Below are positions 2,704-30,977 of a stretch of 31,155 nt of DNA, one piece after another. The stretch is from Verrucomicrobiota bacterium. GTDB taxonomy: Bacteria; Verrucomicrobiota; Verrucomicrobiia; Limisphaerales; CANJXF01. The stretch is from positions 1-31,155 of the forward strand of contig JBBQRQ010000060.1 of the NCBI GenBank assembly GCA_038214755.1, in the 5' to 3' direction. Numbering within the stretch: the stretch's first letter is position 1; the number at the start of each line of letters is the position of its first letter. A model generated the notes under the pieces. The model did not search any database, was not told where the DNA came from, and was given only the letters and a program-made list of their open reading frames with translations. Position numbers and translations under genes: made by a program.

Positions 2704-3933
2704 ATGATCGCCAGACAAATAAAAAAAGAGACGCGCAGCGCCGATTTCCCAATCGGCTTGACGCCGAATACTCGACTGCGACGAGCCGAACCGGAGTTCG
2801 GCGTTCCGTTCAAGTTGCCCGTGCAATGGACAGAGCGTTCATGGGAGCCATCGGTCTGTTCCACATTGATAATTGAGCCGGAACTATTCAGTAAAGATAA
2901 ACGCTCGACCTCACCCCGTCCCTCTCCTCCGAGGAGAGGGAGAACGTTTTTCCGCGCGGGAAAAGATGCACCGCTCAATGACTTATCGAGATCGACGATT
3001 TCAGGTTCCCTCTCTTCGGGGGAGAGGGCTAGGGTGAGGGCGAGCAACCTTGTCCACTGTTTCGTTACGGCTGAGATGGCTCGCTCCTCAAAAAACTTTT
3101 TTCGAGCCACATGGTTTGCTCGTGGACGAAAGGCGAGCCGCTCGAAAAATCGCCTCACTTGCCCTCGTGGTTTTACCTTGATCGAAATGTTGGTGGTGAT
3201 CGCGATCATCGGGATTTTGGCCGGTCTTCTTTTGCCCGCGTTAGCCAAAGCAAAACAAAAAGCCCGTGTCACTCAGGCGCGAATGGAAATAGGAAATCTC
3301 GTCTCAGCGATCACGCAATATCACGCCACTTATGGCCGCTATCCCGCGAACAAAGAAGCGACTGATTCGCTCCCTGGGGATACTTCAGATTGTCCCGATT
3401 TTACCTTTGGAGTAGAAACTGGAAAAGCCGGATGGAGCGGGCCGAACATTGGAGCCAGTTTGAATTTTAAAAGCTATCAAACCAACAATTCCCAGTTGAT
3501 GGCAATTCTTCTTAACTTAGAAACTTTCCCGGATACTGGAGCGGACACTTGCAATAAAAACTTCGCACGCAACCCGCAGAAAATTGTTTTTTATCATGCC
3601 AAGCGAGTTAGTGGAACCGGCCCTGGCGGAGTAGGCGACGATTTGGTTTTTCGTGATCCGTGGGGAAGTCCCTACATCGTCACGATTGATTTTAATTACG
3701 ATGATAAATGCCGTGATGGTTTTTATCGCAACGACAATATGTCGCGCGGAAATGACTCAACAAAACCCGATCTCGGTCTCAATGGTTTATATCGTTCAGC
3801 GCCCGGAGACCATTTTGAAGCAAATGTTCCGGTGATGATGTGGTCGTTAGGGCCCGATGGAGCGGTGGATTACACCGTAAAAGCTGATAAGGGGCTAAAT
3901 AAAGACAACGTCCTAGGCTGGTTCTCAAAATGA
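2704..3933 (+). CDS. (Pseudo)pilin, GspG-like, with repeat-expanded leader (alternative in-frame start at 3076)
   Basis: PRG|FTLIEMLVVIAIIGILAGLLLPAL at 3172; DPWGSPY and WSLGPDG GspG-like motifs. ATG 2704 is 2 nt after the previous stop. Confidence 0.85.
   Translation: MIARQIKKETRSADFPIGLTPNTRLRRAEPEFGVPFKLPVQWTERSWEPSVCSTLIIEPELFSKDKRSTSPRPSPPRRGRTFFRAGKDAPLNDLSRSTISGSLSSGERARVRASNLVHCFVTAEMARSSKNFFRATWFARGRKASRSKNRLTCPRGFTLIEMLVVIAIIGILAGLLLPALAKAKQKARVTQARMEIGNLVSAITQYHATYGRYPANKEATDSLPGDTSDCPDFTFGVETGKAGWSGPNIGASLNFKSYQTNNSQLMAILLNLETFPDTGADTCNKNFARNPQKIVFYHAKRVSGTGPGGVGDDLVFRDPWGSPYIVTIDFNYDDKCRDGFYRNDNMSRGNDSTKPDLGLNGLYRSAPGDHFEANVPVMMWSLGPDGAVDYTVKADKGLNKDNVLGWFSK
2734..2808. repeat. 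REP-like inverted hairpin doublet (GGAG/GGAA-type foot), in frame in the prepilin leader
   Basis: CGCAGCGCCGATTTCCCAATCGGCT (2734-2758) vs reverse complement of 2784-2808, CGGAACGCCGAACTCCGGTTCGGCT. Each arm is itself a hairpin; resembles 30760-30783. Confidence 0.6.
2886..3059 (-). mobile_element. 174-bp MITE-like palindromic element (CCCTCACCC..CCCTCTCC family), copy 1
   Basis: Reverse complement aligns along its whole length with 10729-10902 (also 174 bp): conserved ends, diverged interior. Confidence 0.8.
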
Positions 3934-4769
3934 ACTCCAGCATTTCCAAAACAGAGTTGAAAAGATCTCCCGGAAATTGCCGGCAACGTTTCATTGCCTT
4001 CACGTTGATCGAATTGCTTCTCGTCATCACCATTATCGGAATTCTGGCTGCGCTCGGTCTGCCGCATTTGAAAGGTTGGGGCGAAGGCAACACCATGACC
4101 TCGGCCAGTCGTCAGATGATGGATGACCTGGCGCTCGCTCGGCAAAGAGCGATCAGCAGCCGCTCGACCGTTTATATTATTTTTGTTTCGGCAGAGATAG
4201 CGAACCCGACATTTTTCAATAACCTCAGCGCAGCGGATAAAAAGCAGGCGTCAAATTTATTGAGCGGCCAATACACGACCTACGCTCTTTTCACTCAGCG
4301 CGCGGTGGGGGAACAGCCCGGACATCTCAATCCCAAATATTTGACCGCCTGGAAATCGCTGCCGGATAAAACTTTTATCGCCACCAATAAATTTATCCAT
4401 CTCATTCCACAATCTTTGCGCTTCTCCAGTTCTTACTCGGATACCAATCGCCCCTTCGCCTACGAATCGCTTCCGTTTCCCACCGCCACGAGTCCAAATG
4501 TTTTGGTTCCGTGTGTGGCATTTAATTCTCAAGGCCAACTTATTTCAGAGGAGGAAAAAGATTCTCAAGGCGCGCACGTGGCCTATCGAGATGGGTGCAT
4601 CCCGCTGACCAAAGGCAGTATTTTCTACGCTAGAGATTCGAACGGCGCTCCCACCGTCCGCCCGGCGGACGTCGTGGAAACGCCCAGCCAAAACTCCATC
4701 ACCAACTACAACAACATTCGCATTGACTGGCTGACGGGTCGCGCGCGGCTGGAGCGAAAGGAGTTTTGA
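3930..4769 (+). CDS. Minor (pseudo)pilin, GspH/FimT-like
   Basis: FIA|FTLIELLLVITIIGILAAL; DLALARQRAIS; F.SQG; C-terminal I.IDWLTGRAR typical of FimT/GspH. ATGA overlap with the upstream gene. Confidence 0.8.
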   Translation: MNSSISKTELKRSPGNCRQRFIAFTLIELLLVITIIGILAALGLPHLKGWGEGNTMTSASRQMMDDLALARQRAISSRSTVYIIFVSAEIANPTFFNNLSAADKKQASNLLSGQYTTYALFTQRAVGEQPGHLNPKYLTAWKSLPDKTFIATNKFIHLIPQSLRFSSSYSDTNRPFAYESLPFPTATSPNVLVPCVAFNSQGQLISEEEKDSQGAHVAYRDGCIPLTKGSIFYARDSNGAPTVRPADVVETPSQNSITNYNNIRIDWLTGRARLERKEF

Positions 4770-5686
4770 TGAAAATCTTTCGCAACAAATTTTCGAGAAG
4801 CAGTTTCATAAGTTGTAGCCGCCGACGTGAGGAGGCGGATTCCTGGTCTTTTCGCCGAACTCCGCCTCCTCACGTCGGCGGCTACGGGTTTCGGCATACT
4901 TCGGAAAGCAGTTATAACCAACATCAGGCTTTCACGATGATCGAAATCGCCATCGCGCTCGCCGTCATCGCGTTTGCGCTGGTCGCCATCATTGGTGTGT
5001 TGCCGGTCGGTCTGACGGTGCAGAAAGACAATCGCGAGGAAACGATCATGAACCAGGACGGGCCTTACTGGCTGGAAGCGATTCGCAATGGAGCACAAGG
5101 TTTCGATAATTTAACCAATTACGTCGAGCGAATCGGCGTGGTGCTAATCGACTTGAATCTGAATCCGAATACCATCTCCACGAATTTCTCGGATTATGAT
5201 CCTCCCGCCAACAAACATGGAAGCAACGTCGTGGGTCTGCTCAGCCTTCCCAAAAACAGTTTCTATTTTGATGGATCAAAGACTCAACTGGTGGTGCGGG
5301 TGGAAGCGCAGACGCGCGCTTTGACCGGCGCGGCGACGGAGCAGGGACTGGCCAATAAAGATTTCTCGTTTAGCTATCTGCTGGTTTCGGAAATTATTCC
5401 GTTCGACAACATTGCGCTCGACTCAACTAATTACCTTGCCTACCTAAACCGAACCCCTCCCGTTGATCCTTCTGAATGGATCACCCGTTCCAATCGATGG
5501 GCGCAAGTTCCCTTTTTGGAAGCGCACACTCGTGAAGTGCGGTTGAATTTTCGCTGGCCATTTATCAGTCCCGGCAAGACGGGATCCAATCGCCAACTTT
5601 TTCGCGCGCTGGTTGCGGGCCGGCTGCTGCCGTCGCCGGGCGACCCGCATCTTTACTTTTTTCAACCGCAAACTTACGCGAAATGA
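4769..5686 (+). CDS. Minor (pseudo)pilin, PilV/GspI-like, with a REP doublet in its leader
   Basis: HQA|FTMIEIAIALAVIAFALVAIIGVLPVGL at 4931; ATG at 4769 overlaps the upstream TGA (TGATG). Confidence 0.8.
   Translation: MKIFRNKFSRSSFISCSRRREEADSWSFRRTPPPHVGGYGFRHTSESSYNQHQAFTMIEIAIALAVIAFALVAIIGVLPVGLTVQKDNREETIMNQDGPYWLEAIRNGAQGFDNLTNYVERIGVVLIDLNLNPNTISTNFSDYDPPANKHGSNVVGLLSLPKNSFYFDGSKTQLVVRVEAQTRALTGAATEQGLANKDFSFSYLLVSEIIPFDNIALDSTNYLAYLNRTPPVDPSEWITRSNRWAQVPFLEAHTREVRLNFRWPFISPGKTGSNRQLFRALVAGRLLPSPGDPHLYFFQPQTYAK
4815..4885. repeat. GTAG-foot REP doublet (REPIN-like), perfect 25-bp inverted repeat, in frame
   Basis: GTAGCCGCCGACGTGAGGAGGCGGA (4815-4839), 21-nt spacer, TCCGCCTCCTCACGTCGGCGGCTAC (4861-4885). 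The same REP is at 10687/11188. Confidence 0.9.
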
Positions 5687-6528
5687 AAATCAATTTTCAA
5701 AAAAAGCTTCGCGCGCGCCACGGCTTGACTCTCGTCGAGATGATGGTCGCGACGTCCATCCTCGTCGTGATGATGCTGGGGTTGACCGCGATGTTTAATC
5801 AGACGCAACGCGCCTTTCGCAGCGGATTGAAACAGGTCGATGTTTTCGAAAGTGGCCGAGCCGTCGCCGATTTGCTCGCGCGCGATTTTAATTCTCTGGC
5901 CGATTCCGAGGTGCCGGGTGTGGTCAATCTCTACCACGGCTACGATCCGGTGAATGATTTGATTCAACCCAATGGTTCTATCATCCGAACCAATCAATTG
6001 GAATTTCTCTTTCTGTTGTCGCACGCGAATAACCAATGGGATGGGATTGGTTATACCTTCATCACGAATAGCGGGGTTCCAGGAGTCGCCACGTTGTACC
6101 GTTTCACCGTTTCGACAAATGCAGAGCGAGTCTCGAACAATCTTTATAAACTTTACGGGAAAGCGGTTGCGGACGTACTCCTTGGAACTGCGCCCACCAA
6201 TTTCAATCGTGTGGCCGAAGGGATAATCCATTTCAAAGTGCGAACTCTCAATGCGCAAGGTATCGAGCTCGCGCCGTTGCCAACGGATTACTACGGGCTC
6301 CCCCTTAACACTTTCCTACAGTTTAAAGCCGGCATGACTTTTACAAACGGCACCATGATTTCCACCAACGGCATTCCCAACACGGTGGAAGTTGAAATAG
6401 GGATTCTTGAACCGCAAACATGGGAGCAAGCCAAGAGTGTCGGGAACCCACAAGCCTTTCTCCAAAAGCAGGCGGGAAAAGTTCACATCTTCCGGCAACA
6501 AATTCCCATTCGCAACGCATCGAGATGA
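5683..6528 (+). CDS. Minor (pseudo)pilin, PilW/GspJ-like
   Basis: RHG|LTLVEMMVATSILVVMMLGL; GRAVADLLARD; C-terminal P..VEVEI; ATGA overlaps at both ends. Confidence 0.8.
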   Translation: MKINFQKKLRARHGLTLVEMMVATSILVVMMLGLTAMFNQTQRAFRSGLKQVDVFESGRAVADLLARDFNSLADSEVPGVVNLYHGYDPVNDLIQPNGSIIRTNQLEFLFLLSHANNQWDGIGYTFITNSGVPGVATLYRFTVSTNAERVSNNLYKLYGKAVADVLLGTAPTNFNRVAEGIIHFKVRTLNAQGIELAPLPTDYYGLPLNTFLQFKAGMTFTNGTMISTNGIPNTVEVEIGILEPQTWEQAKSVGNPQAFLQKQAGKVHIFRQQIPIRNASR

Positions 6529-9500
6529 AACCTCAGGCACAACGCAACGTAGCGCAGGTTTTCAACCTGCCGTATCGCGGGTTTGCAACCCGCTGGATGT
6601 CGCGACGCCTTGCCGGTTGCAAACCGGCGATACAGCAGCTTGCCAAGCTGCGCTACGCCTGCCTCAGAACCGTAGCGCAGGTTTCTCAACCTGCTGTATC
6701 GCCGGTTTCTAACCGGCAGGGCGTGAAACATTCCAGCGTTGGCAGAATGGAAATCCGCGATATGAATGGAAAGGAGCGCGGACAGCCGTGTCCGCGTGAA
6801 GGCGGGGGAGTGATAACCCAGGAGATTATATCCGTTTCAAAACTCGCGGACAAGGCTGTCCGCGCTCCACTTGGTTTGGGCAACACGCCCTCAAGATGCG
6901 CTCAACGCGGCGTGGCGCTGGTCATCACCTTGATCATGCTTTCCGTCATTACTTTTTTGACGATTGCATTTCTCGCCATCAGCCGGCGCGACCGCGCGTC
7001 GGTCACCACTTCGATCAATCAAACCGATGCGCGTCTGATGGCGGACGCGGCGCTGGCGCGATTTCAGACCGAATTGGTTTCCGGGATGATGGCTCGCAAT
7101 GATCTGATGAGCTACGATTTGATGCTGACGCGGAATTATATCAACCCGGCTGGATTTAATTTCAACATCACCACCAATGATACGAACAATGTGAACTACG
7201 ATTTCCGCACCGATAATAGTCCGCTGACCGTGCCCGACCAGATTCGCAACATCGCCAATTTATTTTTCGACCCGCGCCCGCCCGTGTTTGTCAGAACGAA
7301 TACTGGCCTCCCAGCCCTTTTCGATTTTCGTTTTTACCTCGACTACAACCGCAACGGCCGCTTTGAGACAAACGGACTTGTCGCGCTCCAAAATGATCTG
7401 GGTCAACCCGTGCGGGATGGAAGTGGCGCCATCATTTCCAACCTGTTTTTCGGCGAACCAGAATGGATTGGCGTCCTGCAACACCCCGAGTTGCCGCATG
7501 GGCCGGACAACAAATTCATTGGCCGTTATCTCTATCTCGCCCTACCGATCGGTAAGACACTCGACCTGAATTATTTTCACAACTACGCCAAGGGAAATAT
7601 CAACCTGCCGGCCGGCATGAATATGGGGGACGGTTTTTTGCGCAATCAGGGATTTGGCTCGTGGGAATTAAATCTCGGCGCGTTTCTGGTGGACTTGAAT
7701 ACCAACATGTATCCTCAGAATCCGGGTGTTCTTTACAGATATTATCCCGATGTTTCCGCCCCAACTGCCAACACCGGGACTGCGTTCGATGACGCCGTTT
7801 CTTTTCTTGGTTATCGTTATGGACGCAACTTCAACAATCTTTCCAGCGTCGGAAATTTATTTGGCGGAGTGGGACAATTCGCGTTTCAAACCGATTTCAT
7901 CGATGGCTATTCCACTCGGCCTGTTCTTACCACGCCATTCGTCAACGTGCTTGATCCGGATTTTAAGCCAAACGATTTAACCGGATTGCCGTGGTCCGGG
8001 AGCGACAATAAAAACTTTTTTTCCAATCCGCAGGAATTGTTCGATAACACGAACAGTCCGGCAAACTTTGTCAATCAACTGCAATTGGTTTCCGCCAAAA
8101 CTAATTCGCATGATCGCTATACTTTTTCGCGATTGCTCGAACAACTCGGCATGAGTTCCGCGCCGGAAGTGAAGGGCAAAATCAATATCAACTACACCAA
8201 CGACCCCGCGCTCAACACCGTCAGCACCACGTTCGTGCCGTGGACGCCCATTCAGTTTTTTACGAATGTGGCGGACCGATTGTTCAAAGATAATTTGGTG
8301 ACGCTTGTCGTTTCACCGGGCGTGACGAATTTTTACATGTTCAACACGAACGCGGGGAATCTGGTGCGGGCTGGTTTCAGCTACACGAACATCCAGATTT
8401 ATCCCACGAATGAATACACCGCGCCGGTGCATCGCTTATTGCAACTCGCCGCCAATATTTACGACGCGACGACAACGAATCGTTTCCCGACAATTTTTCG
8501 TCCGCAGTTTCTAGGTTTTCCTGGTCGAACTTTTATCACGAACTACGTCGTAGAAACTAATTCAGCCTTCATAGGTGTCTTAACCAACTCACCGATTCAG
8601 GAGCGTACCAATGTGACGGTTCCGAATGGATTCGTCTGGGGTGTCCCGCTCGTCGTGAGCGCGAAGAAGGGGTTTCCTAATTTCAATAAGTTTGTTTTGC
8701 AGACGTCCGCGCAAGTTTCTCGCAACTTACAATTATTAAGAAAGGACACTAATTCTCTTCCTACCACGACGAATCAAATGTTGGTCGTTGGCATATCGAA
8801 TCTTTTTGGGCTGGAAGCATGGAATTCCTATACGAATATTTATCCCGGCAACCTGAGAATTATCGTTACCAATAGTTTCACCATTGCCCTCACAAACGAA
8901 CTTAGAAACATTATCTGGCCGTCGAACGGACGGCCTACCAACTACGGTGTTGCAGCTAACATTACGACAAATATGTGGGCGCCTGCGCCGTACATGAATT
9001 CCTTTCTGCTTCCGCTTGGAACAAGATATTTTAATTTTTTAACCAATTCCCAATATTCCGCTGTCACCAAAACGTTTCGGCCCGGAATAACCAACTTCGA
9101 AAGTAAAGTCGATTATCCCGATTATATTTGGGGGATTACGATGACCAACAAACTTATTTGTATGATCATTGATATTACCGACCCTGGAAATCAGCGCGTC
9201 GTGGATTTTGTAAATCTTGACGAGATGACGACCGGCATTGAATTGACCAAGGAGTTGCTTGGTCAGGATTACGCCTCTCCGCCAACCTTGGGCGCTAGCC
9301 TTTCTCCCGTCGAAAGAGTTTGGAAAACAAATCGAATAGACGGCAGTACGAGCGTTTCGGTTCCTACGGAAGGGATGCGACAACAGATTCTTTTTTCGAT
9401 GGATGCGCCGAAACTTCCCGATGCTGATTGGACGAGTTATAGTCCATCCACGCCGGTAGGTCCGCAGAGAGAGCGGGCGGTTGATAACTTTCGAAAATTC

Positions 9501-10652
9501 ATGGGCCTTTCGAGATTGTATTCTTTGAATCAAACCATGATACCGGCCCTGGATGTTCAAACTCCGTTTAATCCGACTCGCAAATTGGATCAGACAGCGA
9601 CGTGGCAGGTAAATGACCCGTTGGTTCACTATGCAGTTCGAGATTTGCTCGATACAACCAATGCCATCGTCAATACGGTGCGTATTCCTCCCGATGGTCC
9701 CCCACCGACAAATCATTTAATGCAATTAAGCGTTCGTTATCGTCCGTGGGGGGGGAATCATCCTCCAACTAAATTCGGTCAGAGTGATTTCAGCGAACCC
9801 GATGCCGAAGCTTACGATCTGACGGTAAAAGACCCATTAGTGCGTCAGTCGGATGATTGGGATTTCCCGACAAACAAATTTCCAAACATCGGTTGGCTTG
9901 GTCGTGTCCATCGCGGGACACCGTGGCAAACGATTTACTTGAAAGCAGCGGTGACGACCAACTGGTACAATTGGGCTGGTCACAATGAATCGCATCCCAC
10001 GAATGATTGGAGATTGATGGATGTATTTACAGCGTCAGCGAATGATAACGCTGCGCGCGGTTTGCTTTCGGTCAATCAAACCAATCAAGCGGCGTGGTCG
10101 GCAGCGTTGGGTGGTTTGATTGCGCTCTCAAATTCAATTGCCAAACCTAACGCGGGAAGTACCCCGCAATTTCAATCGGTCGTCATTCAGCCCAATTCGC
10201 CGCAACTCTTTGAAATTGTTAATAACCTCAACTCGATACGCACGAATCAGCCGAATCAAGTCTTTCATTCCATCGGAGATATTCTGGCCGCGCCTCAATT
10301 GAGTATGATGGTGGACACCAATGGCGCTTCCGGTTCGCGCTACTTGAATTTTTCTCAAGACCAGATTTCCTATGGGCTGACGGACGAAGCGGTGGAGCGG
10401 ATTCCCCGGCAACTCCTGTCGCTGCTGAAACTGGGCGAGCCGCGCTTTGTTATTTATTGCTACGGACAATCCCTTCGGCCGGCGAATAATTCGCTGGTGT
10501 TGAGTCCGCCGCTGGGCAGCGGCTTGTTCAACCTTTGCACCAATTATCAAATCACCGGCGAAGTTTTGACGCGCACCGTTCTGCATGTCGAAGGCACTCC
10601 TCAAAATCCAAGAGCGGTGATCGAAAGTTACAATGTTTTGCCAACAGATTGA
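6525..10652 (+). CDS. Very large PilX/GspK-like minor pilin (~1375 aa) with repeat-expanded leader
   Basis: QRG|VALVITLIMLSVITFLTIAFL at 6912 (no Glu5, as in PilX/GspK); GKININ and GLLSVN GspK-like motifs. ATG 6525 overlaps the upstream TGA. Confidence 0.8.
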   Translation: MKPQAQRNVAQVFNLPYRGFATRWMSRRLAGCKPAIQQLAKLRYACLRTVAQVSQPAVSPVSNRQGVKHSSVGRMEIRDMNGKERGQPCPREGGGVITQEIISVSKLADKAVRAPLGLGNTPSRCAQRGVALVITLIMLSVITFLTIAFLAISRRDRASVTTSINQTDARLMADAALARFQTELVSGMMARNDLMSYDLMLTRNYINPAGFNFNITTNDTNNVNYDFRTDNSPLTVPDQIRNIANLFFDPRPPVFVRTNTGLPALFDFRFYLDYNRNGRFETNGLVALQNDLGQPVRDGSGAIISNLFFGEPEWIGVLQHPELPHGPDNKFIGRYLYLALPIGKTLDLNYFHNYAKGNINLPAGMNMGDGFLRNQGFGSWELNLGAFLVDLNTNMYPQNPGVLYRYYPDVSAPTANTGTAFDDAVSFLGYRYGRNFNNLSSVGNLFGGVGQFAFQTDFIDGYSTRPVLTTPFVNVLDPDFKPNDLTGLPWSGSDNKNFFSNPQELFDNTNSPANFVNQLQLVSAKTNSHDRYTFSRLLEQLGMSSAPEVKGKININYTNDPALNTVSTTFVPWTPIQFFTNVADRLFKDNLVTLVVSPGVTNFYMFNTNAGNLVRAGFSYTNIQIYPTNEYTAPVHRLLQLAANIYDATTTNRFPTIFRPQFLGFPGRTFITNYVVETNSAFIGVLTNSPIQERTNVTVPNGFVWGVPLVVSAKKGFPNFNKFVLQTSAQVSRNLQLLRKDTNSLPTTTNQMLVVGISNLFGLEAWNSYTNIYPGNLRIIVTNSFTIALTNELRNIIWPSNGRPTNYGVAANITTNMWAPAPYMNSFLLPLGTRYFNFLTNSQYSAVTKTFRPGITNFESKVDYPDYIWGITMTNKLICMIIDITDPGNQRVVDFVNLDEMTTGIELTKELLGQDYASPPTLGASLSPVERVWKTNRIDGSTSVSVPTEGMRQQILFSMDAPKLPDADWTSYSPSTPVGPQRERAVDNFRKFMGLSRLYSLNQTMIPALDVQTPFNPTRKLDQTATWQVNDPLVHYAVRDLLDTTNAIVNTVRIPPDGPPPTNHLMQLSVRYRPWGGNHPPTKFGQSDFSEPDAEAYDLTVKDPLVRQSDDWDFPTNKFPNIGWLGRVHRGTPWQTIYLKAAVTTNWYNWAGHNESHPTNDWRLMDVFTASANDNAARGLLSVNQTNQAAWSAALGGLIALSNSIAKPNAGSTPQFQSVVIQPNSPQLFEIVNNLNSIRTNQPNQVFHSIGDILAAPQLSMMVDTNGASGSRYLNFSQDQISYGLTDEAVERIPRQLLSLLKLGEPRFVIYCYGQSLRPANNSLVLSPPLGSGLFNLCTNYQITGEVLTRTVLHVEGTPQNPRAVIESYNVLPTD
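6548..6720. repeat. GTAG-foot double-hairpin REP arms (one inverted pair plus a third arm), in frame
   Basis: GTAGCGCAGGTTTTCAACCTGCCGTATCGCGGGTTTGCAACCCGC (6549-6593); inverted partner 6612-6656; third arm GTAGCGCAGGTTTCTCAACCTGCTGTATCGCCGGTTTCTAACCGGC from 6672. Confidence 0.9.
6773..6868. repeat. GGAG-foot REP doublet, in frame
   Basis: GGAGCGCGGACAGCCGTGTCCGCG (6773-6796) and CGCGGACAAGGCTGTCCGCGCTCC (6845-6868): 24-bp inverted repeat with 1 mismatch. Confidence 0.9.
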
Positions 10653-10728
10653 TCGAATGGAAATGGAACGAAAATTTTGCCTGAATCGTAGCCGCCGACG
10701 TGAGGAGGCGGACTTAGCTGTAAGTCAT

Positions 10729-10902
10729 CAGTGGAGAAGGTTGCCCGCCCTCACCCTAGCCCTCTCCCCCGAGGAGAGGGGACCCGCCATCAGCGCGCTC
10801 GATCAGTTATGCAACGGTAATCCTTTCCCAGCACTGGATAACATTCTCCCTCTCCTCGGAGGAGAGGGCCGGGGTGAGGTCGAGCGTTTCTTTTCACTGA
10901 AT
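10729..10902 (+). mobile_element. MITE-like palindromic element, copy 2 (174 bp)
   Basis: CAGTG...CACTG termini; sub-terminal inverted CCCTCACCCTAGCCCTCTCC / GGAGAGGGCCGGGGTGAGG; 10843-10905 is identical to 11101-11163. Confidence 0.85.
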
Positions 10903-10926
10903 GGTTTGGGTTTAGCCCGAACTGAT

Positions 10927-11160
10927 CAGTGGAGAGGGTTGTTCGCCCTCACCCTAGCCCTCTCCCCCAGGGAGAGGGGACAGCGATTGGCGTCTGTCGA
11001 AAGTTTGCGGCGCGTTGGACCAATTTCCGCCTCTATGTTATTCGGAGAGAGAAGTCGCGCTAAGGTTAAGCGCCTCCCAATTATCAAAACGCGGCCAACG
11101 ATTCTCCCTCTCCTCGGAGGAGAGGGCCGGGGTGAGGTCGAGCGTTTCTTTTCACTGAAT
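10927..11160 (+). mobile_element. MITE-like palindromic element, copy 3 (234 bp)
   Basis: Same ends as copy 2 with a longer interior. Confidence 0.85.
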
Positions 11161-11303
11161 GGTGGCGCTTGGGAAATGCGCGCGGAATCCGCCTCCTCAC
11201 GTCGACGGCTACGGGAAAGGTTTGTTATTGGTCGGGCTTTTTTCTGTGATATGTTGGACGACTCACGATTTAAAAACGTCGGCGGTTTGGCCGGCTTGAA
11301 CGT

Positions 11304-14300
11304 ATGAAATCTAGAACCTGGTTTTTGTTGAGCATCGCGCTTTTTATCGCGGCCGCTTTTTTTTGGCGGCTCGGTGAACAGAAACGTTTGGCGCAACAAA
11401 ATGCCAAACAGCCCGCCGCCGTCAGCGCGAAAAAGTCGGGCCCCATTTCGAGTCAGGTTTCGTCGAAAACTATTTCGCCGAAAAAGCCCCCGACAGATTC
11501 TTTGCCAGCGGAGACGAACGCGACGAATTCAAAATCGCTTTATCCCAATCGCCTGAGCAACACGACCAAGACCATCGATCAATTGGCGCGGGACAACCAA
11601 GCGATTTTGCTGCGCAACGCGCTGATCGATACACGAGTTGAAGCGCCGAATATTCCCGAGCATCTCCGCGCGAAAGGCGATCCGGGAAGTTACATCGTGC
11701 AAGCGCGCGGGCCATTGACCGATTTATTTCGAGCCGAACTAAGCGCGGCCAAGGCTGAGATCGTTTCGTATGTGCCGAACAACGCTTATCTGGTGCGAAT
11801 GAATCGCGGAGGCGTCGAGAAATTGATGGGCAACAAAGATGTGGAATCCATTTTGCCCTATGAGCCTTATTACAAACTCGACACGGATTTACTGGAGCTG
11901 GCAGTCAAGAAGGAAGCGTTGTCACTCGACAAAATTGTTCGCGTCACTTGGTTTCCGGGACAACTCGATGCGGGCGTCAAAGCATTGCCGAAAGGCAGCG
12001 TGGTGGGAGAGGATTTGAAAAGTTCTCCCTTCGGACCGGAGTCCCTCGTTTCTACGGCGGACCTGGTTGCGCTCGCGAATTTGCCTGAAGTGCAGGGTGT
12101 CGAGCGTTCTTATGAGCGCACGCTTTTCAATGACTTGACACGAGTCCGTCTCGGGATCTCAACGAATAGTTTAATAACGACGCTGAACCATCAAGGGCTG
12201 ACGGGCTCGAATGTTTTCGTGAACGTCAACGACACCACGATTGATAACGGCCATCCTGATTTGACTCCGCGAATTTTTCCGGGCGCTGGAGTAGGCATCA
12301 CGGACACGGACGGCCACGGGACGATGGTCGCAGGAATCATTACGAGCAGCGGCGCACCGGACCAGCCGAACGGGACCAACGTTCCAGGCTCGGTAGCAGG
12401 AGCGGATTTTCGCGGCAAGGCTCCCGCGGCTAAGATTTTTTCGCTCGATATTTTTGCCGGCTTGAGCGATTGGCAGTTGCAGGAGACCGCGGCGCGCACC
12501 AACCTTTTTGCCTTCAACCGCAACTCACCTTTGATCTCGAATAACAGTTGGGGTTACGGCTCCAGTTCCTACAATTCGGCCGCAGCCAGTTATGACATGG
12601 CGGTGCGCGACGCTATTCCGGGGGTCACCAATTCTCAACCGATGATTTATGTTTTTGCGGCGGGCAACGGCGGCGGTGGCAATAACAATGGGCAAGGTGG
12701 TTTTTCTGGATCGGTGATTTCTCCATCGACGGCGAAAAACGTGATCACCGTTGGCGTGTTGGAAAATCCGCGCAACATCACCAACGACATCATTCGTCCA
12801 AATCGTTCGTGCGTGATCGTAACTAACAAGGAATTTCTCGGCTTGACCGACAGCTCGAATCAGGTGGCGTTCCTTTCCAGTCGCGGAAATGTCGGTGTCA
12901 GTCTGGAAGGAACTTTCGGACGATTCAAACCGGACGTGGTGGCGCCGGGAACCTTTATAGTTTCGACCCGTTCGCGGCAACTGGATGAGGGCGTTTATTA
13001 CAGCACCACGAATTTCATCGTGAACACGTTTCGCAATCTGGTGATCGATCCGGGCGATACGAACCGGTTTTCTATTTTTGTGCCAGACGATCCGTGTGAT
13101 GAAGGCAGAGCGATCTCTTTCAGCATTGATACGCTCGCCAATGGAAATTCGCCCAGCCCATTTCCTCCGCTGAGAATTTTTGTGGATACCGCGCCGGTTC
13201 CTTCGGCTGCTCCGGCCAACTTCGTTGCGACGAATTCGGTGACGCTGGTTCCGGGCGACGCCAAGTTTGCGCGCGGAACGGTGGTGTATTACGACATCGT
13301 CAACACGAACTCCATCGAGGTGAATTACAATTTGCGGACGGAGATCGTGGTCACGAATGATTACGGAAATTATTTTAAGGTGCTGAAAAGTTTGAACGAC
13401 AGTCTCGGCACGAATTATTTTTATCGAACAGGCTCGAGCATGGCGGCTCCGGCCATCTCCGGAATGCTGGCGTTGATGCAGGAATTTTTTGAGAAGAAAT
13501 TATCGCCTCCCCTGACGAACAGCCCGGCGATGATGAAGGCGTTGTTGATCAACTGCGCGCGTTCTCCAAACGACTTGCTCTACAAACTCGATGCGACCAG
13601 CAGCTTGAATATTGCCGGCTGGGGTCTGCCCAATTTGACTCGCGCATTGCCGGCCATTCTTCTGACTGCTCCGACCAATGAGTGGCCAATCCAGATGATC
13701 GATCAAAGCACGAATGACGCATTGGCTACGGGCGAGACTTATACTCGCAACATCACGGTGGCTGATACGAATTCTCCATTGCGGATCACGTTGGTTTGGA
13801 CCGATCCGCCGGGCAACCCGCAGGTTGGCGTGAAGCTGGTCAACGATCTCGATCTGGTCGTGAAGACAGTTGTGACCAATGTGATCGGAACCAATATGAC
13901 TGTCAGCACGAACATTTATTTTGGAAATCATTTTACCGGCGGCAGCCAATTCACCGACCCGATTGATGTGGGCACCAATGCATTGGCCAGCTTTGATGCG
14001 GCGCGAGATGTGGTGAACAATGTAGAGAACGTTTACATCAATGGCCCATTGAGCGGCGCATATGAAGTTTCCGTCGTTGCCCGAAGAGTAAACGTCAACG
14101 CGGTGCGAGCGCACACCAATGGCATTGTGCAGGATTATGCTTTGGTTATTTCCAGTGGGAACCTCACGACGAATGCGCCTTTTGCGATTGCACCCGCCAC
14201 ACCCCCTCTTGTCTCGGACCCACGACCGTTTGTGACCAATGTTGTTACCGTCATCACCAATGGCATCGCTCTGCTGAATCAACGAGTAGGAGCTAACGCG

Positions 14301-22304: not shown

Positions 22305-22399
22305 GGAGCGCGGACTTCAGTCCGCTTCAATGGTGATGCTTCATTTGAGATTAACATTTTTCCAATTTCCAAATTGAAGCGGCGTCAACGCCGCGCTCC
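22305..22399. repeat. GGAG-foot REP doublet at the WXG100/ATPase junction
   Basis: GGAGCGCGGACTTCAGTCCGCTTCAAT (22305-22331) and ATTGAAGCGGCGTCAACGCCGCGCTCC (22373-22399); same family as 30844-30942. Confidence 0.85.
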
Positions 22400-22404: not shown

Positions 22405-22617
22405 CTATTCGCAATCTGTCCGGATTTTGTGGAGAAGTTTGTCCAATTGATCCATCACTGCCACGGCGGTATCGACTCCGTCAAAAAGTTCTTCCAAATA
22501 TTTTCGCTCGAATTCTGCGCTCTTGGCGTCGCGCCAATATTCTTTCGTCTGCTTCCAATTCATCAACAACTCTTTGGTGATCGTCGCAAGCTGGGTTTTG
22601 TTGGCGCTCAAACTCAC
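22405..22617 (-). CDS. Small WXG100-like helical protein
   Basis: 70 aa, helix-W(RD)-helix (YWRDAKSAEFERKY), parallel to WQDQEHEKF in the neighbouring WXG100 protein; GTG start overlaps the upstream TGA. Confidence 0.65.
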   Translation of the reverse strand: MSLSANKTQLATITKELLMNWKQTKEYWRDAKSAEFERKYLEELFDGVDTAVAVMDQLDKLLHKIRTDCE

Positions 22618-23273
22618 GATGAATCCTCCTCCGAAAAGGGTAGCGCGGGCGACCCGCCCGCCCCGGTTGGCGACCCGCCAACCGGAATGGGAGAGGCGTG
22701 ATTTTGTGAGCGACGTTTTTCTACACGTTGAGCATCTCCGCTCGTTCCGTCCGGCGAGTCGCCGGACGGGACAGGCGAGTCGCCTGTGCTACCCGTCGTT
22801 GGTGAAACGCCACCATAGGCTTGCAAGGACTTCACCGCCTCTCGCAAATACGCAATCGCTTCCGGCAAATTGCTCACGAGAACAGTTTGTAATTTTTCCA
22901 ATTGCTTGGCCAGCGGTTCGACTTGGCTCCCGAAATCGCGGTTCCATTTTTTTACGACCTTCAATTTTTCTTCCGCTCCCGCGAGAGCGCGTTTGGCCTT
23001 GAGCACTGCCATTCGTTCGGCGGAAGAGACTTCGCGCAAATTGGAAAGCTCCGCGCTGAACTGGGCCTGTTGCGCGTCCTGAAGTTTTTGCGTGGCGCGC
23101 CGCACTTGCGCTTCCCAAAAAACCCGGCGATCACTTTCGAGCCAGCCGCGCGCGCGAATCACATTGTCGCTGACTTCTTCGAGAGTGGGGCGCGCTTTGC
23201 TGAGGTAAACGATCAGGTTTGTGCGGAAAGATTCCAACGCTTCAACGGAAGTAACATTGGCGCGGGTCGGCAT
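22614..23273 (-). CDS. Helical coiled-coil protein of the WXG100/type VII-like locus, with REP-derived C-terminal tail
   Basis: ANVTSVEALESFR N-terminus; amphipathic helices to LQAY, then a low-complexity tail encoded by a repeat; 1 nt after the WXG100 stop. Confidence 0.7.
   Translation of the reverse strand: MPTRANVTSVEALESFRTNLIVYLSKARPTLEEVSDNVIRARGWLESDRRVFWEAQVRRATQKLQDAQQAQFSAELSNLREVSSAERMAVLKAKRALAGAEEKLKVVKKWNRDFGSQVEPLAKQLEKLQTVLVSNLPEAIAYLREAVKSLQAYGGVSPTTGSTGDSPVPSGDSPDGTSGDAQRVEKRRSQNHASPIPVGGSPTGAGGSPALPFSEEDSS
22638..22794. repeat. GTAG-foot double-hairpin REP doublet, in frame at the 3' end of the gene
   Basis: GGGTAGCGCGGGCGACCCGCCCGCCCCGGTTGGCGACCCGCCAACCGGA (22638-22686); inverted partner 22746-22794 reads GGGTAGCACAGGCGACTCGCCTGTCCCGTCCGGCGACTCGCCGGACGGA. 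Confidence 0.88.
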
Positions 23274-23274
23274 G

Positions 23275-23547: not shown

Positions 23548-23618
23548 GGAAATAGTTTAGGTGGGAAAAGTTTTCGAGGCAAACGGCAATGTGGTGAATG
23601 CATATCTGCGAGAACATC

Positions 23619-23646: not shown

Positions 23647-23652
23647 CAAACG

Positions 23653-24053: not shown

Positions 24054-24102
24054 GGATTGATTTTTCTATTTCCAAAAACGTACGTCCTTCTTCAATTTTT
24101 TT

Positions 24103-24130
24103 TGTAACCTTTCCTCGCCGTTCCCTCAGG
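24103..24130 (+). promoter_or_regulatory. Possible ECF-type promoter upstream of the kinase
   Basis: TGTAAC (AAC -35 typical of ECF promoters) ~17 nt before TCAG, just upstream of the kinase ATG; weak. Confidence 0.3.
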
Positions 24131-24137
24131 AAAGAGC

Positions 24138-26876
24138 ATGAGCATTGCATCTGAACCAAAACTTTGTCCGAAATGCGGGGCGACTATTCCCGCCGAAGCG
24201 CCGCAGGGGCTTTGTCCGAAATGTCTTTTGTTGGAAATCTCGACTCCCACCGACGCGGGACAGAGCGCGCATTCCAAATCCATTCCGCCGACGCGCGATG
24301 AACTGGCGGCGGCATTTCCGCATCTGGAAATTCTGGAGCTGATTGGCCAGGGCGGAATGGGTTTCGTTTTCAAAGCGCGCCAACCGAAGCTCGACCGTTT
24401 CGTCGCGCTGAAAATTCTCCCACAATCGCTCGCGGCTGACCCGGCGTTTGCGGAACGATTCTCGCGCGAAGGCCGATTGCTCGCGCGCCTGAATCATCCG
24501 AACATCGTGACGGTTCACGACTTCGGTGTAGCGTCAGGCATCCTGCCTGACGTAGAGCCGGGCTTCCAGCCCGGCGGAAAAAGCGTGGATGAAGGAGAGA
24601 GTGAGAAAATTTCAAATGCTCCGACTAATACGTCCGCCAATCCGCGCGGCAGGATGCCGCGCTCTACGTCAGGCAAGATGCCTGACGCTACGGGCGCTTC
24701 GGTATTTTTTTATCTGCTCATGGAATTTGTGGATGGCGTGAATCTTCGGCAGGCGATGAAAGCCGGGCGTTTCACTCCTGAACAAGCGCTCGCCATCGTG
24801 CCAAAAATTTGCGAAGCGCTCCAGTTCGCGCACAACGAAGGCATCCTCCATCGCGACATCAAACCGGAAAATATTTTGCTCGATACGAAAGGCCGCGTGA
24901 AGATCGCTGACTTCGGCATCGCGAAATTGATCAGTGACGTAGGGCAGACATTCCTGTCTGCCGGTGCGGGCGACTTTCCAGTCGCCAGTGGGAAGGGTGC
25001 GGGGGAAAAGGACACAAACGCGGGACTGGAAAGTCCCGCGCACCGGCAGGCTGGAAAGCCTGCCCTACAATCCGTGGCGCTCACCGGTGCGGGAAAAACC
25101 CTTGGCACGCCGAATTACATGGCGCCCGAACAAATTGCCACGCCCGGAGCGGTCGATCATCGCGCGGACATTTATTCGCTCGGCGTGGTCTTTTACGAAA
25201 TGCTCACTGGCGAATTGCCGTTGGGCCGATTCGCTCCGCCCTCGCAAAAATCTTCCGCCGACCCGCGCCTCGACGATGTTGTCCTCCGCGCGCTGGAAAA
25301 AGAACCCAATCGACGCACCCAGAGCGCAGGCGAAGTGAAGACGCAGGTGGAGACGATTGCGACCAATCAGCCCCCGCCAATTTCCGCTCCGCCGAATTTA
25401 CCGGTTGAGCCGAAAAGATTTGTGGGACGTGGCGTAATGGTTGGTTTTTTGGTATTCGCTTTAATAGTTTTTGTCACAACGGTGGCCACTCTCCTTTTGC
25501 CAAAAACCTACAAAGCCAGGTCGCTTATTTTGCTGGAAACAAAATTCCAATTTATCCGACCGGAAATTTCGGTTGGATCATCCGATGATAAAGTTCTTAA
25601 AAAAGTATCTGCAGACCTCAATTTGAAAGAGAGATGGAAGGCGCGCATTGATAAGATGGAAAAAAAAGAACCATTCCTTCTCTCAGCGTTCCGTCGCACC
25701 GCTTCGCCAGACGAGGTCCGAGAGTTAGCGGCAATCATATTGTTGCAAAAATCGTTGACGATTGTTCGGAATGGCAACACTTCGATCTTCGAGATTTCTT
25801 TCCTTGGACCAAACGCAGCAGAGGCCGCTGAGATCGCGAATGCTGTTGCCGCAGGTTTTATGGTGAGAGCGGCGGAGGATGGATCAATAAGAATATTATT
25901 TATTGATAAGGCCACTCCAAATCGGCGTCCCGTTGCCCCGAATATTTATCGAAACATTGCGGGCGGTGTTTTGGGCGGCATGATCCTCGGTCTCGTTTCT
26001 GCATTAATAACGATTCTGGTTTCGCGCAAACGGAATTCTTCTCCGGCGATTGCACTACCACCTGCCGCTGCCTCGCGCGACCGATTCTGGAAACGTTTCG
26101 CAGTCGTGGTTGCGTTGGTGTTGCTGGCGGTGATTTTCGTTCCTACCGCAGTGCTTCTGTTGAGTTACAAAAGGAATACGCTAAGAGAGGGCGCGCGCGA
26201 TGCCGCCTACGAAAAATCATCGGCGAGCCAGCTTGTGATGTCCTCCGTGCCGTTTGACTCACACAATAATGGACCTGATCAATTGAATTGGGGTTTTAAG
26301 TGCTTCGTTCCACCTGATCATTTGGCGACCTTCTTGTTCGTGCGTTGGAGCAATGGCGTGCCAACGATTGATAAAGGATTTAGTGCCTATATCAAAGTTG
26401 GCAAAGCCGGTGGAATCGACATCCCATTTTGCTCTTTTTCCTGTTACAGGATTCAAGCGCTGCTGGACGGAAAGTGGAATGATGATCAACGCAGAAAGTT
26501 TTTTTCAGAACACGATTTTCCAGAGTCCGTCAATCCCACAAACATCGTGCAATGGAATGTAAATCTGGGCGGAGGTTTTACGATTAGCGGTTGGAAAGAC
26601 ATGCCGACGTATCAGCAAATTCAACTGAACCTTCCGTTAAGTGTTCGGTCAGGCCACCAACGCACGATTCGCCTAGTCGATTTGGAGAATTTCGAAGCAA
26701 ATACAAACCATCAATCTGGCGTGGAATTGCGCGTATTTCTCCAGCCGCTGACGTTGCCCCCCATCCGAACGCGCGCGAATGAGATTAATCGGACGAATTA
26801 CGTTTACGGAAGTGGTCTTGTTGGAACAACAGAGGAAGCTCTGACCGCGATGAAGAACTTGCCGCTTGAGCCGTGA
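24138..26876 (+). CDS. Membrane Hanks-type Ser/Thr protein kinase with N-terminal double CxxC, two in-frame REP insertions and a Wzz/CpsC-like module
   Basis: CPKC..CPKC; IGQGGMG, VALK, HPNIV, MEFVDG, HRDIKPEN, DFG, GTPNYMAPEQ, DIYSLG; three TM segments downstream. Confidence 0.95.
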   Translation: MSIASEPKLCPKCGATIPAEAPQGLCPKCLLLEISTPTDAGQSAHSKSIPPTRDELAAAFPHLEILELIGQGGMGFVFKARQPKLDRFVALKILPQSLAADPAFAERFSREGRLLARLNHPNIVTVHDFGVASGILPDVEPGFQPGGKSVDEGESEKISNAPTNTSANPRGRMPRSTSGKMPDATGASVFFYLLMEFVDGVNLRQAMKAGRFTPEQALAIVPKICEALQFAHNEGILHRDIKPENILLDTKGRVKIADFGIAKLISDVGQTFLSAGAGDFPVASGKGAGEKDTNAGLESPAHRQAGKPALQSVALTGAGKTLGTPNYMAPEQIATPGAVDHRADIYSLGVVFYEMLTGELPLGRFAPPSQKSSADPRLDDVVLRALEKEPNRRTQSAGEVKTQVETIATNQPPPISAPPNLPVEPKRFVGRGVMVGFLVFALIVFVTTVATLLLPKTYKARSLILLETKFQFIRPEISVGSSDDKVLKKVSADLNLKERWKARIDKMEKKEPFLLSAFRRTASPDEVRELAAIILLQKSLTIVRNGNTSIFEISFLGPNAAEAAEIANAVAAGFMVRAAEDGSIRILFIDKATPNRRPVAPNIYRNIAGGVLGGMILGLVSALITILVSRKRNSSPAIALPPAAASRDRFWKRFAVVVALVLLAVIFVPTAVLLLSYKRNTLREGARDAAYEKSSASQLVMSSVPFDSHNNGPDQLNWGFKCFVPPDHLATFLFVRWSNGVPTIDKGFSAYIKVGKAGGIDIPFCSFSCYRIQALLDGKWNDDQRRKFFSEHDFPESVNPTNIVQWNVNLGGGFTISGWKDMPTYQQIQLNLPLSVRSGHQRTIRLVDLENFEANTNHQSGVELRVFLQPLTLPPIRTRANEINRTNYVYGSGLVGTTEEALTAMKNLPLEP
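24528..24691. repeat. GTAG-foot double-hairpin REP doublet, in frame in the kinase N-lobe
   Basis: GTAGCGTCAGGCATCCTGCCTGACGTAGAGCCGGGCTTCCAGCCCGGCGGA (24528-24578) and inverted partner 24641-24691. Confidence 0.92.
24939..25068. repeat. GTAG-foot double-hairpin REP doublet, in frame in the kinase activation loop
   Basis: GTAGGGCAGACATTCCTGTCTGCCGGTGCGGGCGACTTTCCAGTCGCC (24939-24986) and inverted partner 25021-25068. Confidence 0.92.
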
Positions 26877-26882
26877 GCCAAC

Positions 26883-27626
26883 TTGAAAACCTCAACACAA
26901 TTCTCGCCGCATTCGGAAACTTTCGTCACCACGCAATGGACGCGTGTGCTGGAAGCGCGCGGCGATTCGCCGGAAGCAAAAGTAGCGTTGAGCGAATTGT
27001 GCGCGGCGTATTATGCGCCGGTGTTTACGTTCGTTCGTCGCAATGCGCGGGACGAAGATGCGGCGCGTGATTTGACGCAGGAATTTTTTGCACGGCTTCT
27101 GGCGCGACAAGGGTTGAATTCTGTCGAACAAAACAAAGGACGTTTTCGTTCTTACCTCCTCGGCGCGGCGAAACATTTTCTCGCCGATGCACGCGACCGT
27201 GCGAACGCCGCAAGACGCGGCTCCGGCCAATTGCACCAATCCATCGAGCCGGGAACCGACACGTCGCCGGGTTTGCAATTGGCAGATGAGAATGCGTTGA
27301 GTCCCGATGGCGAGTTCGATAAAAAGTGGGCGCTCACACTTCTGGAACGCGCGCTCGCCGCACTCGCTGCCGAACAAAAAGCCGCCGGAAAACTTCATCA
27401 GTTTGAAATTCTAAAATCATGGCTGACTGGCGATGCCGAAACTTTTTCCCAAGCTGATGCCGCGCGACAACTCGACATGAATGAAGGCGCGGTGAAGGTC
27501 GCGATTCACCGATTGCGCCGACGCTTCCGCGAATTGGTCAAAGCGGAAATCGGCCAGACGTTGAATGATCCGTCGCAAGTCGCGGAAGAACTCGCGTGTC
27601 TGATCGCGGCGTTGTCGGGGAAATAG
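26883..27626 (+). CDS. ECF sigma-70 factor of the kinase-associated PVC type
   Basis: F.TT.W..V N-terminus; ARDLTQEFF and GRFRSYL (sigma2); AA.QL.M.EGAVKVAIHRLRRR (sigma4). Confidence 0.9.
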   Translation: MKTSTQFSPHSETFVTTQWTRVLEARGDSPEAKVALSELCAAYYAPVFTFVRRNARDEDAARDLTQEFFARLLARQGLNSVEQNKGRFRSYLLGAAKHFLADARDRANAARRGSGQLHQSIEPGTDTSPGLQLADENALSPDGEFDKKWALTLLERALAALAAEQKAAGKLHQFEILKSWLTGDAETFSQADAARQLDMNEGAVKVAIHRLRRRFRELVKAEIGQTLNDPSQVAEELACLIAALSGK

Positions 27627-27723
27627 TTCAAACGAAGACTGCTGAAACTTGCGACTGCCTTCGCGCTGTCTTAACTTCGTTCCACAATTCCTTTTGAAAA
27701 ATTTCATGTCGCCGCATTGGATC

Positions 27724-30720: not shown

Positions 30721-30759
30721 CCGGCGTATTTTATATGACCTCCCAAATGCGGACGAGCC

Positions 30760-30977
30760 CGGAGCGCCGGTTTGCAACCGGCTTACCCGTAATCATGCAG
30801 TTGGGAAATGACGCCAAGCCGCCAATGAAGTTGCTCTTGCGATAGGAGCGCGGAATTTATTCCGCTTCAACGTGGTTCATCGTTTGGTGTTCCATACCTG
30901 TAGGCCGAGGTTGCGTTGAAGCGGAATAAATTCCGCGCTCCTGCTGCATCGCGTGTGACTCCAACTGCATTGTTACG
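30760..30977. repeat. Nested REP cluster: solo GGAG arm and an outer inverted pair enclosing a perfect 29-bp REP doublet
   Basis: GGAGCGCCGGTTTGCAACCGGC (30761-30782); GTAATCATGCAGTTGG (30789-30804) / CCAACTGCATTGTTAC (30961-30976); AGGAGCGCGGAATTTATTCCGCTTCAACG (30844-30872) perfectly inverted at 30914-30942. Confidence 0.85.

Follow-up and report, generated by a model that had tools for sequence, protein, structure and literature searches.

Many families of repetitive extragenic palindromes, their probable RAYT partners and in-frame copies in a Verrucomicrobiota genome

Introduction

Repetitive extragenic palindromes (REPs) and the REP-associated tyrosine transposases (RAYTs) have been described in Pseudomonas and Enterobacteria, where the inverted REP doublets (REPINs) are located outside genes, each arm has a single hairpin and a genome contains 1-3 families. 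The inverted doublet is the mobile unit, and each family has one REP-flanked RAYT gene (PMC3116915, PMC2817692); several RAYT/REPIN pairs may be present in a genome (Bertels and Rainey, 2011, PMC3116915; Nunvar, 2010, PMC2817692). Among the mobile DNA of bacteria, REPIN-RAYT systems are the best candidates for a long-lived kind which is inherited vertically. Here we analyse the REPs and REPINs in a 31,155-nucleotide stretch of DNA from a Verrucomicrobiota bacterium (GenBank assembly GCA_038214755.1, contig JBBQRQ010000060.1; the whole stretch is called the window) and in the genome to which it belongs.

A described system in the same phylum is that of the verrucomicrobium O. terrae. In this organism several GTAG families coexist; GTAG and CGTC super-families of REPs have been distinguished (Di Nocera, De Gregorio and Rocco, 2013, BMC Genomics 14:522, PMC3733652). 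There are subfamilies with alternative complementary stem residues, the dimers are mostly inverted, and the RAYT genes are flanked by REPs (PMC3733652). Intragenic, in-frame REPs are most numerous in O. terrae, among others in both uvrA genes, in other DNA repair genes and in tRNA synthetase genes (PMC3733652). Thus, neither this type of system nor compensatory stems nor in-frame copies are new to the phylum, all three having been reported for O. terrae in 2013.

On the protein side the reference is subclass 2.4 of TnpA-Y1, which corresponds to RAYT group 4. Its characteristic motifs are NH[IFV]H, WQ and YIxNNP, its median length is ~194 aa (Quentin, Siguier, Chandler and Fichant, 2018, PMC6006769). 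The in-frame REP insertions reported for it concern the RAYT gene, and its REPs are described as long or double-footed; "unexpectedly long" proteins were dropped as fusions or annotation errors (PMC6006769).

The genome examined here carries a population of REPs and REPINs in many families, each of which is, at a probability of roughly 0.85, recognised in trans by a RAYT of its own. The evidence comes from the architecture and copy number of the repeats, the REPs at the flanks of RAYT genes, the covariation of the hairpin stems, the presence or absence of elements among congeners and the copies which lie in frame in genes.

Repeat families and their architecture

Contig C60 of a Verrucomicrobia genome of the soil type (G000; 5.1 Mb, 175 contigs, 52.7% G+C) makes up the window. 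The family census is based on an inverted-repeat scan, a listing of perfect hairpins and direct reading of the sequence. Within 200 nt of each other 25 inverted-repeat pairs are present in the window. The strongest of them are the elements which had been named in an earlier reading of the letters alone (the sequence-only reading). At least eight families, nearly all as inward-facing pairs, had been claimed then; we find about 10 distinct REP/REPIN families. All of them form inverted pairs with the feet outward, except for family K, which is a single REP, and a third, unpaired arm of family D. The spacers between the inverted arms of REPINs A, D, E, G, I, J and L measure 0-62 nt.

A foot of the GTAG/GGAG type had been taken as common to the families. 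The GTAG foot is carried by families A, D, H, I and J, the GGAGC foot by E, G, K and L. Two families depart from this scheme, i.e., C with a GGAAC foot and B, which is counted as footless because its GGAG belongs to the stem. The arms of four GTAG families, D (6548), H (22640), I (24528) and J (24939), consist of two tandem hairpins, exactly as had been proposed. All eight arms (8/8) fold as single-stranded DNA (ssDNA) into two tandem hairpins with z-scores of -3.4 to -7.3, calculated against 200 shuffles per arm. The four pairs of partner stems which had been quoted as differing in sequence while keeping their pairing are present at 24943-24962/25045-25064, 22645-22661/22771-22787, 6554-6570/6635-6651 and 24557-24575/24644-24662.

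The families are multi-copy genome-wide, again as foreseen. Individual window arms have 7-234 genomic copies (at least 85% identity over at least 90% of the arm length); exceptions are the left arm of H and the right arm of I, which are diverged and have one copy each. In 500 kb of the genome 319 perfect hairpins are found compared with 183 in a Markov simulation. Genome-wide, the sequences which most often precede a perfect hairpin on its 5' side are CGTAGC (154), CGGAAC (114), GATAC[GA]/[CT]GTATC, TGGAGT and CGGAGC. A greedy procedure with 14-mers (islands of 12-mers were too noisy, covering 34% of the genome) yielded 110 repeat families with at least 12 copies, mostly of the hairpin type and some with tandem 6-8-nt repeats. 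The non-tandem high-copy islands total 114,847 bases. Adjacent pairs of hairpins with a linker of 0-10 nt, predominantly [CT]GTATC, number 311 as opposed to about 28 expected from random placement. Therefore, double-hairpin arms are a common architecture in this genome and no quirk of the window.

Tandem repeats of 6-8-nt units (AAATCCG, ATCGAAC, TTGAATCG, CATCCAA and others) are also among the commonest 14-mers genome-wide. They are found in REPIN spacers and beside REPs, e.g., downstream of the PriA gene on C88.

RAYT genes and their flanking REPs

The window is devoid of a RAYT gene by profile search, in agreement with the sequence-only reading. In the genome PF01797 has 17 matches, 16 of them over the cut-off, and NF047646 (REP-associated tyrosine transposase) has 12, with 7 over the cut-off. 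On both sides of RAYT genes REPs of families D, E, I, J, 0, 5, 7, 12/26, 18 and 19 are located. Specifically, the RAYT on C37 is flanked by family E, that on C13 by a GGAGC family which is a sister of the E-type, that on C149 (94.7 bits against NF047646 at a cut-off of 80) by family J, that on C5 by family I and that on C10 by family D. Family 18 flanks the RAYT on C41, a GGAGT-footed family that on C117, and family 19 that on C2; the RAYTs on C88, C33 and C64 are flanked by families 0 and 12/23/26. From this linkage we infer which RAYT serves which family.

The HUH and Y..NP motifs are kept in all of the 10 aligned RAYTs (10/10). The five RAYTs with double-hairpin REPs have a common N-terminal extension, YFVTFRL..LP, and cluster together with a split support of 0.70 (10 aligned). 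In the database the C5 RAYT has its closest relatives in Pedosphaera-like and other Verrucomicrobiia metagenome-assembled genomes (MAGs), with up to 79% identity; more distant ones (43-50% identity) are labelled Acidobacteria, Planctomycetes and others. Several close orthologues in other Verrucomicrobia MAGs are flanked by the same arms, a GTAGC-hairpin followed by a GTAGA-hairpin. Across the order RAYT matches (E <= 1e-10) were obtained in 48 of 61 sampled genomes, with 0-22 per genome and 10 in G000. Many of these matches lie within open frames of 1000-1440 aa.

These data can be accommodated in a simple scheme. A REP would be a short ssDNA hairpin with a 5' foot (GTAG, GGAGC or GGAAC), mostly arranged in inverted doublets. 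Each family would be served by its own RAYT, a Y1 HUH nuclease whose gene is located elsewhere and has the same hairpins at its flanks. On the model of E. coli TnpA-REP and IS200/IS605, the RAYT would bind the folded hairpin and the foot on ssDNA, cut and rejoin. Copies at new sites would arise over species-level time, and the system may be active at present. Most surviving copies are intergenic.

In the congener G001, which belongs to the same genus and is 97% complete, no RAYT match reaches E <= 1e-10, and its PriA is free of a RAYT. It may serve as a natural RAYT-poor comparison strain.

Covariation of hairpin stems

Compensatory changes in the stems had been noticed in the few copies of the window, and they hold in alignments of 113-331 copies. 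For these the foot and the invariant outer stem were fixed as anchors and the inner stem was left free, so that pairing was not selected for; as a null the partners of the inner stems were shuffled 500 times. In every informative hairpin set the free inner stem is paired far above the maximum of the 500 shuffles. Hairpin 1 of family D is fully Watson-Crick paired in 219 of 233 copies (shuffle mean 63, maximum 82) with 9 distinct stems, hairpin 2 in 187 of 253 (mean 54.5, maximum 72) with 5 distinct stems. For the J/12 hairpin the figures are 107 of 113 (mean 33, maximum 47; 6 stems), for the GGAGC family 173 of 331 (mean 35, maximum 51; 9 stems) and for the GGAAC family 165 of 281 (mean 62, maximum 74; 5 stems). 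The family-I patterns, with 7 of 48 and 2 of 70 paired, were anchored too loosely to be informative either way.

We propose that recognition by the RAYT requires the hairpin and that, therefore, the stems drift only by paired changes. Such a paired drift would lead to subfamilies with different complementary stems and to REPINs which combine arms from different subfamilies. A second explanation dispenses with selection by the RAYT: the compensatory stems might stem from self-correction of palindromes by template switching or intra-hairpin repair, followed by amplification of a few palindromic masters. Mechanisms of palindrome self-correction are established in general, and the fact that hundreds of copies carry only 5-9 distinct stems fits bursts from few masters. 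On the other hand, the hairpins beside RAYT orthologues in other genomes differ in sequence yet occupy the same flanking positions, and the foot is conserved while the stems vary. As the sole source of the covariation such self-correction appears possible, albeit on the unlikely side, and it is not exclusive of recognition by RAYTs.

REPs in frame in housekeeping genes

Strictly speaking, a part of these elements is not extragenic. Of the 864 high-copy loci with a hairpin, 101 are in a frame which is open for at least 100 codons on each side; among random loci 398 of 864 do so. Therefore, REPs are depleted in genes, yet far from excluded. From these 101, 76 elements in 70 open reading frames (ORFs) also have two flanks which resemble coding DNA in their codon usage. 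The score behind this tells coding frames from open non-coding ones only moderately well (median 8.7 versus 95th percentile 7.0); it was used solely in combination with Pfam and with the requirement of at least 100 open codons to either side.

The 70 host ORFs were scanned against Pfam and tallied by hand. The element is inside the best-stretch envelope of a domain in 28 of the 76 cases, where a domain match is interrupted, i.e., comes in two or three stretches, in 5, and between different domains on both sides in 25. Pfam support is one-sided or unresolved for 13/76, and 5/76 are in an ORF without a Pfam match. Accordingly, 58/76 elements are within or between Pfam domains of housekeeping genes; 2 of the 28 in-domain elements (C50:12123 and C78:15919) do not resemble REPs. 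Overall, 7-12% of REP loci are in ORFs.

Genes of DNA repair and replication are prominent among the hosts and include SMC (in the hinge), two UvrA-like ORFs, RecQ, Mfd, two DinG-like helicases, SNF2, DnaX, DnaE and an IMS-family polymerase. Five aminoacyl-tRNA synthetases, IleRS, ValRS, AlaRS, PheS and a GlnRS/GluRS-type enzyme, are affected as well, in addition to ribonucleotide reductase, aconitase, 2-oxoglutarate dehydrogenase E1, GcvP, NuoL, KsgA and GlnE. The sequence-only reading had spoken of routine in-frame coding insertion. Genome-wide such insertions are indeed common; within the window they can be demonstrated for two elements only, REPINs I and J. The other window elements probably are upstream of the likely true starts or downstream of stops, a placement outside genes which we derive from the positions of N_methyl motifs.

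REPINs I and J are both in a gene for a Ser/Thr protein kinase of 912 aa (24138..26876, plus strand). Its Pkinase match (6.2e-44) is broken into three stretches by the two in-frame REPINs. REPIN I (24528..24691, plus strand; per arm a GTAGC-hairpin and a GTAGA-hairpin) is located between strands beta4 and beta5, flanked by HPNIVTVHDFG and FFYLLMEFVDG. REPIN J (24939..25068, plus strand; per arm a GTAGG-hairpin and a GGTGC-hairpin) is in the activation loop between DFG and APE with the flanks DFGIAKL and GTPNYMAPE. An AlphaFold2 model of the kinase domain, based on a 6-row alignment, is poor with a mean predicted local distance difference test score (pLDDT) of 50.3. In this poor model the REPIN-encoded stretches 134-187 and 260-329 have pLDDT <50 and no secondary structure, which is weakly compatible with loops.

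Comparisons with congeners show that such elements are present in some genomes and absent from others. The KsgA REPIN is present in G000 only. The two halves lie side by side, or almost so, in the DNA of 18 relatives (gaps of 0-10 nt by coordinates), and the net gain versus four congeners is 105 nt. The first kinase site is empty in congeners G003 and G006, where it reads DFGQAKEFFYLLME.

According to our proposal a copy in a gene would survive when the net change is a multiple of three, when it brings no stop codon and when it falls into a tolerant surface loop; the result would be in-frame inserts of 8-60 residues. The REPs themselves show no clear depletion of stop codons beyond composition. 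On average 3.22 of 6 frames are open, compared with 2.99 in a rough dinucleotide shuffle and 2.85 in random genomic DNA; there is no convincing indication that REPs are adapted to being translated. A survival filter on tolerant loops is enough to account for survival, not by itself for how often the same loop is hit.

In the ValRS ORF (C56:8074-12399, minus strand, locus L145, 1442 aa) the tRNA-synt_1 match falls into three stretches. This ORF also has an LPD3 domain (PF18798, 2.9e-27) at residues 774-886; the REP is at 1097-1107.

Reused loops and in-frame RAYT cassettes

Orthologous loops were compared across genomes. At the first kinase site REPIN I is common to the window and G007, G005 has a family-I REPIN and G013 a family-A REPIN. 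The activation loop contains J in the window, a GGAGT-type pair in three orthologues, a family-18 REPIN in G006 and a family-B element in G013. The same applies to a loop in AlaRS (G000 locus L206 on C77; relatives L207-L220), delimited by STLP...DIAFRV. In nine relatives it is empty of REPINs and 39-42 residues long; three of these hold short tandem 6-7-nt repeats. G000 has a family-12/23 REPIN in this loop, G014 and G007 have GGAGC-type REPINs. In G005 the loop accommodates a complete in-frame RAYT with repeated arms, i.e., 232 extra residues, and in G011 there is a gap of similar size, identified by coordinates only. That the same kinase and AlaRS loops are occupied by different elements in different genomes is a poor fit to simple insertion.

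The RAYT in the AlaRS of G005 is not a singular case. In G000 complete RAYT domains together with REP arms are in frame in a PriA-like helicase (C88:17590-20586, minus strand), a DinG-like helicase (C64:9580-12468, minus strand) and a 1440-aa UDPGP-domain protein (C33:13409-17728, plus strand). In the PriA-like ORF (998 aa) the RAYT is followed by two family-0 REPs, between the N-terminal domain and Walker A; this insert is flanked by PriA_3primeBD, DEAD, Helicase_C and PriA_C. Full-length PriA-RAYT fusions with 81-83% identity exist in G002, G003 and G005, and G008 has the fusion as two pieces in one open frame. Residues 1-604 are matched in G009, an unpublished genome. The fusion was not found in G001, G007 or any other family searched. 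Our literature searches returned no publication linking a RAYT to PriA or to an in-frame position, and on REPINs in frame in protein-coding genes nothing relevant beyond the known REPIN papers.

Many in-gene REPINs might thus be remnants of in-frame REP-RAYT-REP cassettes after loss of the RAYT, or might have replaced another element in a loop which was already expanded. The AlaRS loop, with its REPIN in G000, its RAYT in G005 and other families in G014 and G007, speaks for this, as do the two kinase loops with their different families. The KsgA REPIN speaks against it because neither a RAYT nor another element is at this site in 18 relatives. Moreover, the REPINs at shared sites belong to different families; therefore, simple decay of one cassette cannot explain all. 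As the origin of many in-gene REPINs we consider this rather unlikely.

Other elements of the window

The remaining families of the window are described in order of position. Family C is an inverted pair (2735..2807; arms 2735-2757 and 2785-2807, with 16 and 34 copies) with the GGAAC-type foot. It is between two pseudopilin genes, upstream of where the next gene has its N_methyl motif. The footless inverted pair of family B (2903..3046; CTCACCCC..CCCTCTCC-loop-GGAGAGGG) has neither a GTAG nor a GGAGC foot and 114-117 copies; it resembles a MITE (a miniature transposable element with inverted repeats). The intergenic family-A REPIN (4815..4885; GTAG foot) has perfect 25-nt arms which are 100% complementary, 223 copies and a fold z of -12.5.

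The three arms of family D (6548..6724) alternate in orientation, each with GTAGC and a hairpin and then GTATC and a hairpin; they have 21-171 copies. Shortly thereafter follows the REPIN of family E (6773..6868), with a GGAGC foot, one hairpin per arm and 89-91 copies. A nest of repeats is located at 10688..11212, where family-A arms (10688-10712 and 11188-11212) surround the family-B pairs 10745-10886 and 10939-11144. The ORF 10633-11307 (224 codons, ATG start) consists of these nested repeats only and has no Pfam match; gene-calling software would probably list it among the hypothetical proteins.

The family-G REPIN (22305..22399; GGAGC foot, 19-24 copies) is at the 5' end of an FtsK-like ORF. 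Family H with its double-hairpin arms (22640..22795; GGGTAGC foot, 19 copies of the right arm and 1 of the left) spans the last ~60 codons of an unassigned ORF (22614-23273, minus strand). The single REP of family K (30762..30785; GGAGC foot, 63 copies) has the hairpin GCCGGTT-tgc-AACCGGC in common with family D. The family-L REPIN (30844..30942) has perfect 29-nt arms with the GGAGC foot, 17 copies and a fold z of -12.2.

The last 137 bases of the contig (31017-31153) are part of a repeat with at least 14 copies (family 88) and 12-mer counts of up to 37. An ATG-started frame begins inside it. Probably this is the end of an insertion sequence where the assembly broke.

Weighing the evidence

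The view that a diversified RAYT-REPIN system acts in trans, which had been put forward in the sequence-only reading, is supported by these analyses. Several observations weigh against it. A cognate RAYT flanked by each family had been expected. Such RAYTs exist for D, E, I, J and at least six others; the 175-contig assembly yielded none with flanks of A (about 230 copies), B, C, G/L, H or K. The only family-D-flanked RAYT (C10:59253-60083) has an in-frame TAA stop just ahead of the region of the catalytic Tyr motif and probably is a pseudogene; therefore, the most abundant double-hairpin family may be inactive now. Copies of family 0 (at most 3 mismatches) number 326 in G000, 68 in G003, 35 in G007, 10 in G001 and 7 in G005. 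This is only loosely related to the presence of the PriA-borne putative RAYT, as G005 with the RAYT has 7 and G007 without it has 35. The covariation tallies sequences and not events, the independent evidence being the 5-9 distinct paired stems per family. Finally, the elements in the kinase and in KsgA have replaced 12-18 nt of the empty-site sequence instead of simply interrupting it. This is unlike the prediction of peel-and-paste transposition, i.e., the insertions are not clean.

That the hairpins are non-mobile regulatory or structural elements of the host (terminators, mRNA stabilisers, sites for gyrase or integration host factor) with an incidental link to RAYTs, as one might think from the mostly intergenic copies, beside gene ends in the window, and from the argued role of many REPs as RNA elements (Di Nocera et al., 2013, PMC3733652), is very improbable in view of the copies inside Pfam domains of housekeeping genes, the differing presence among congeners at orthologous sites, the matching families at RAYT genes in at least 10 cases and the outcome of an Rfam gathering scan of the window (0 matches), i.e., no known RNA family.

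Within the RAYT-REPIN reading two propositions are tentative and may be new. Firstly, one RAYT clade, that with the N-terminal extension, might recognise an obligate head-to-tail pair of footed hairpins, suggesting a different binding geometry, e.g., one hairpin per subunit or domain. Secondly, the kinase and AlaRS loops might be reusable landing sites where REPIN families, tandem repeats and in-frame RAYT cassettes succeed one another, i.e., selfish DNA which drives hypervariable loops. In the compared passages of PMC3733652 and PMC6006769, figures and supplementary tables apart, and by literature searches we found no description of one protein loop being reused by different REP families.

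At least 10 RAYT/REP pairs in one genome constitute natural experiments on specificity, turnover and tolerance. Congeners which differ at single insertion sites and dozens of read-through copies in essential genes are further experiments of this kind. There is also a practical aspect. Gene callers and domain searches will split genes or misplace starts near REPs, as exemplified in the window by ORFs 2644, 4766, 6420 and 10633 and by the Pkinase match in three stretches.

Comparison with known systems

The system had been presented as undescribed for this lineage. This stands only in part. In-frame REPs and complementary stems are published (PMC3733652, PMC6006769); for an obligate double-hairpin arm tied to a RAYT clade no description was found in the text portions of these papers that were compared, and a literature search on RAYTs with double or tandem hairpins returned no publication. 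As with the GTAG REPs of O. terrae, in-frame copies are found here in two UvrA-like ORFs, RecQ, Mfd, DnaE, IleRS, ValRS, AlaRS and PheS. Unlike the O. terrae description, the head-to-tail hairpin pair is the obligate arm of several families, and a prominent place is taken by families with a GGAGC or GGAAC foot which have RAYTs of their own.

The motifs of subclass 2.4 are recognizable in 7 of the 10 aligned RAYTs, by eye and not by profile score, and a length near 200 aa fits as well. In contrast to the description of subclass 2.4, in the part of the text compared, there are two tandem hairpins per arm here, and the insertions are in other genes.

With the REPIN-RAYT systems of Pseudomonas and Enterobacteria the present one shares the inverted doublets, the family-matched flanked RAYTs and the several pairs per genome. 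It differs from them by at least 10 RAYT-linked families and by the 7-12% of loci which are inside ORFs. In the latter respect it is reminiscent of the Rickettsia palindromic elements (RPEs). RPEs are longer and belong to CGTC-type or other families, and to our knowledge no RAYT partner has been reported for them. Like the REPINs described here, they are palindromes in frame in many housekeeping genes which are read through as extra peptide loops.

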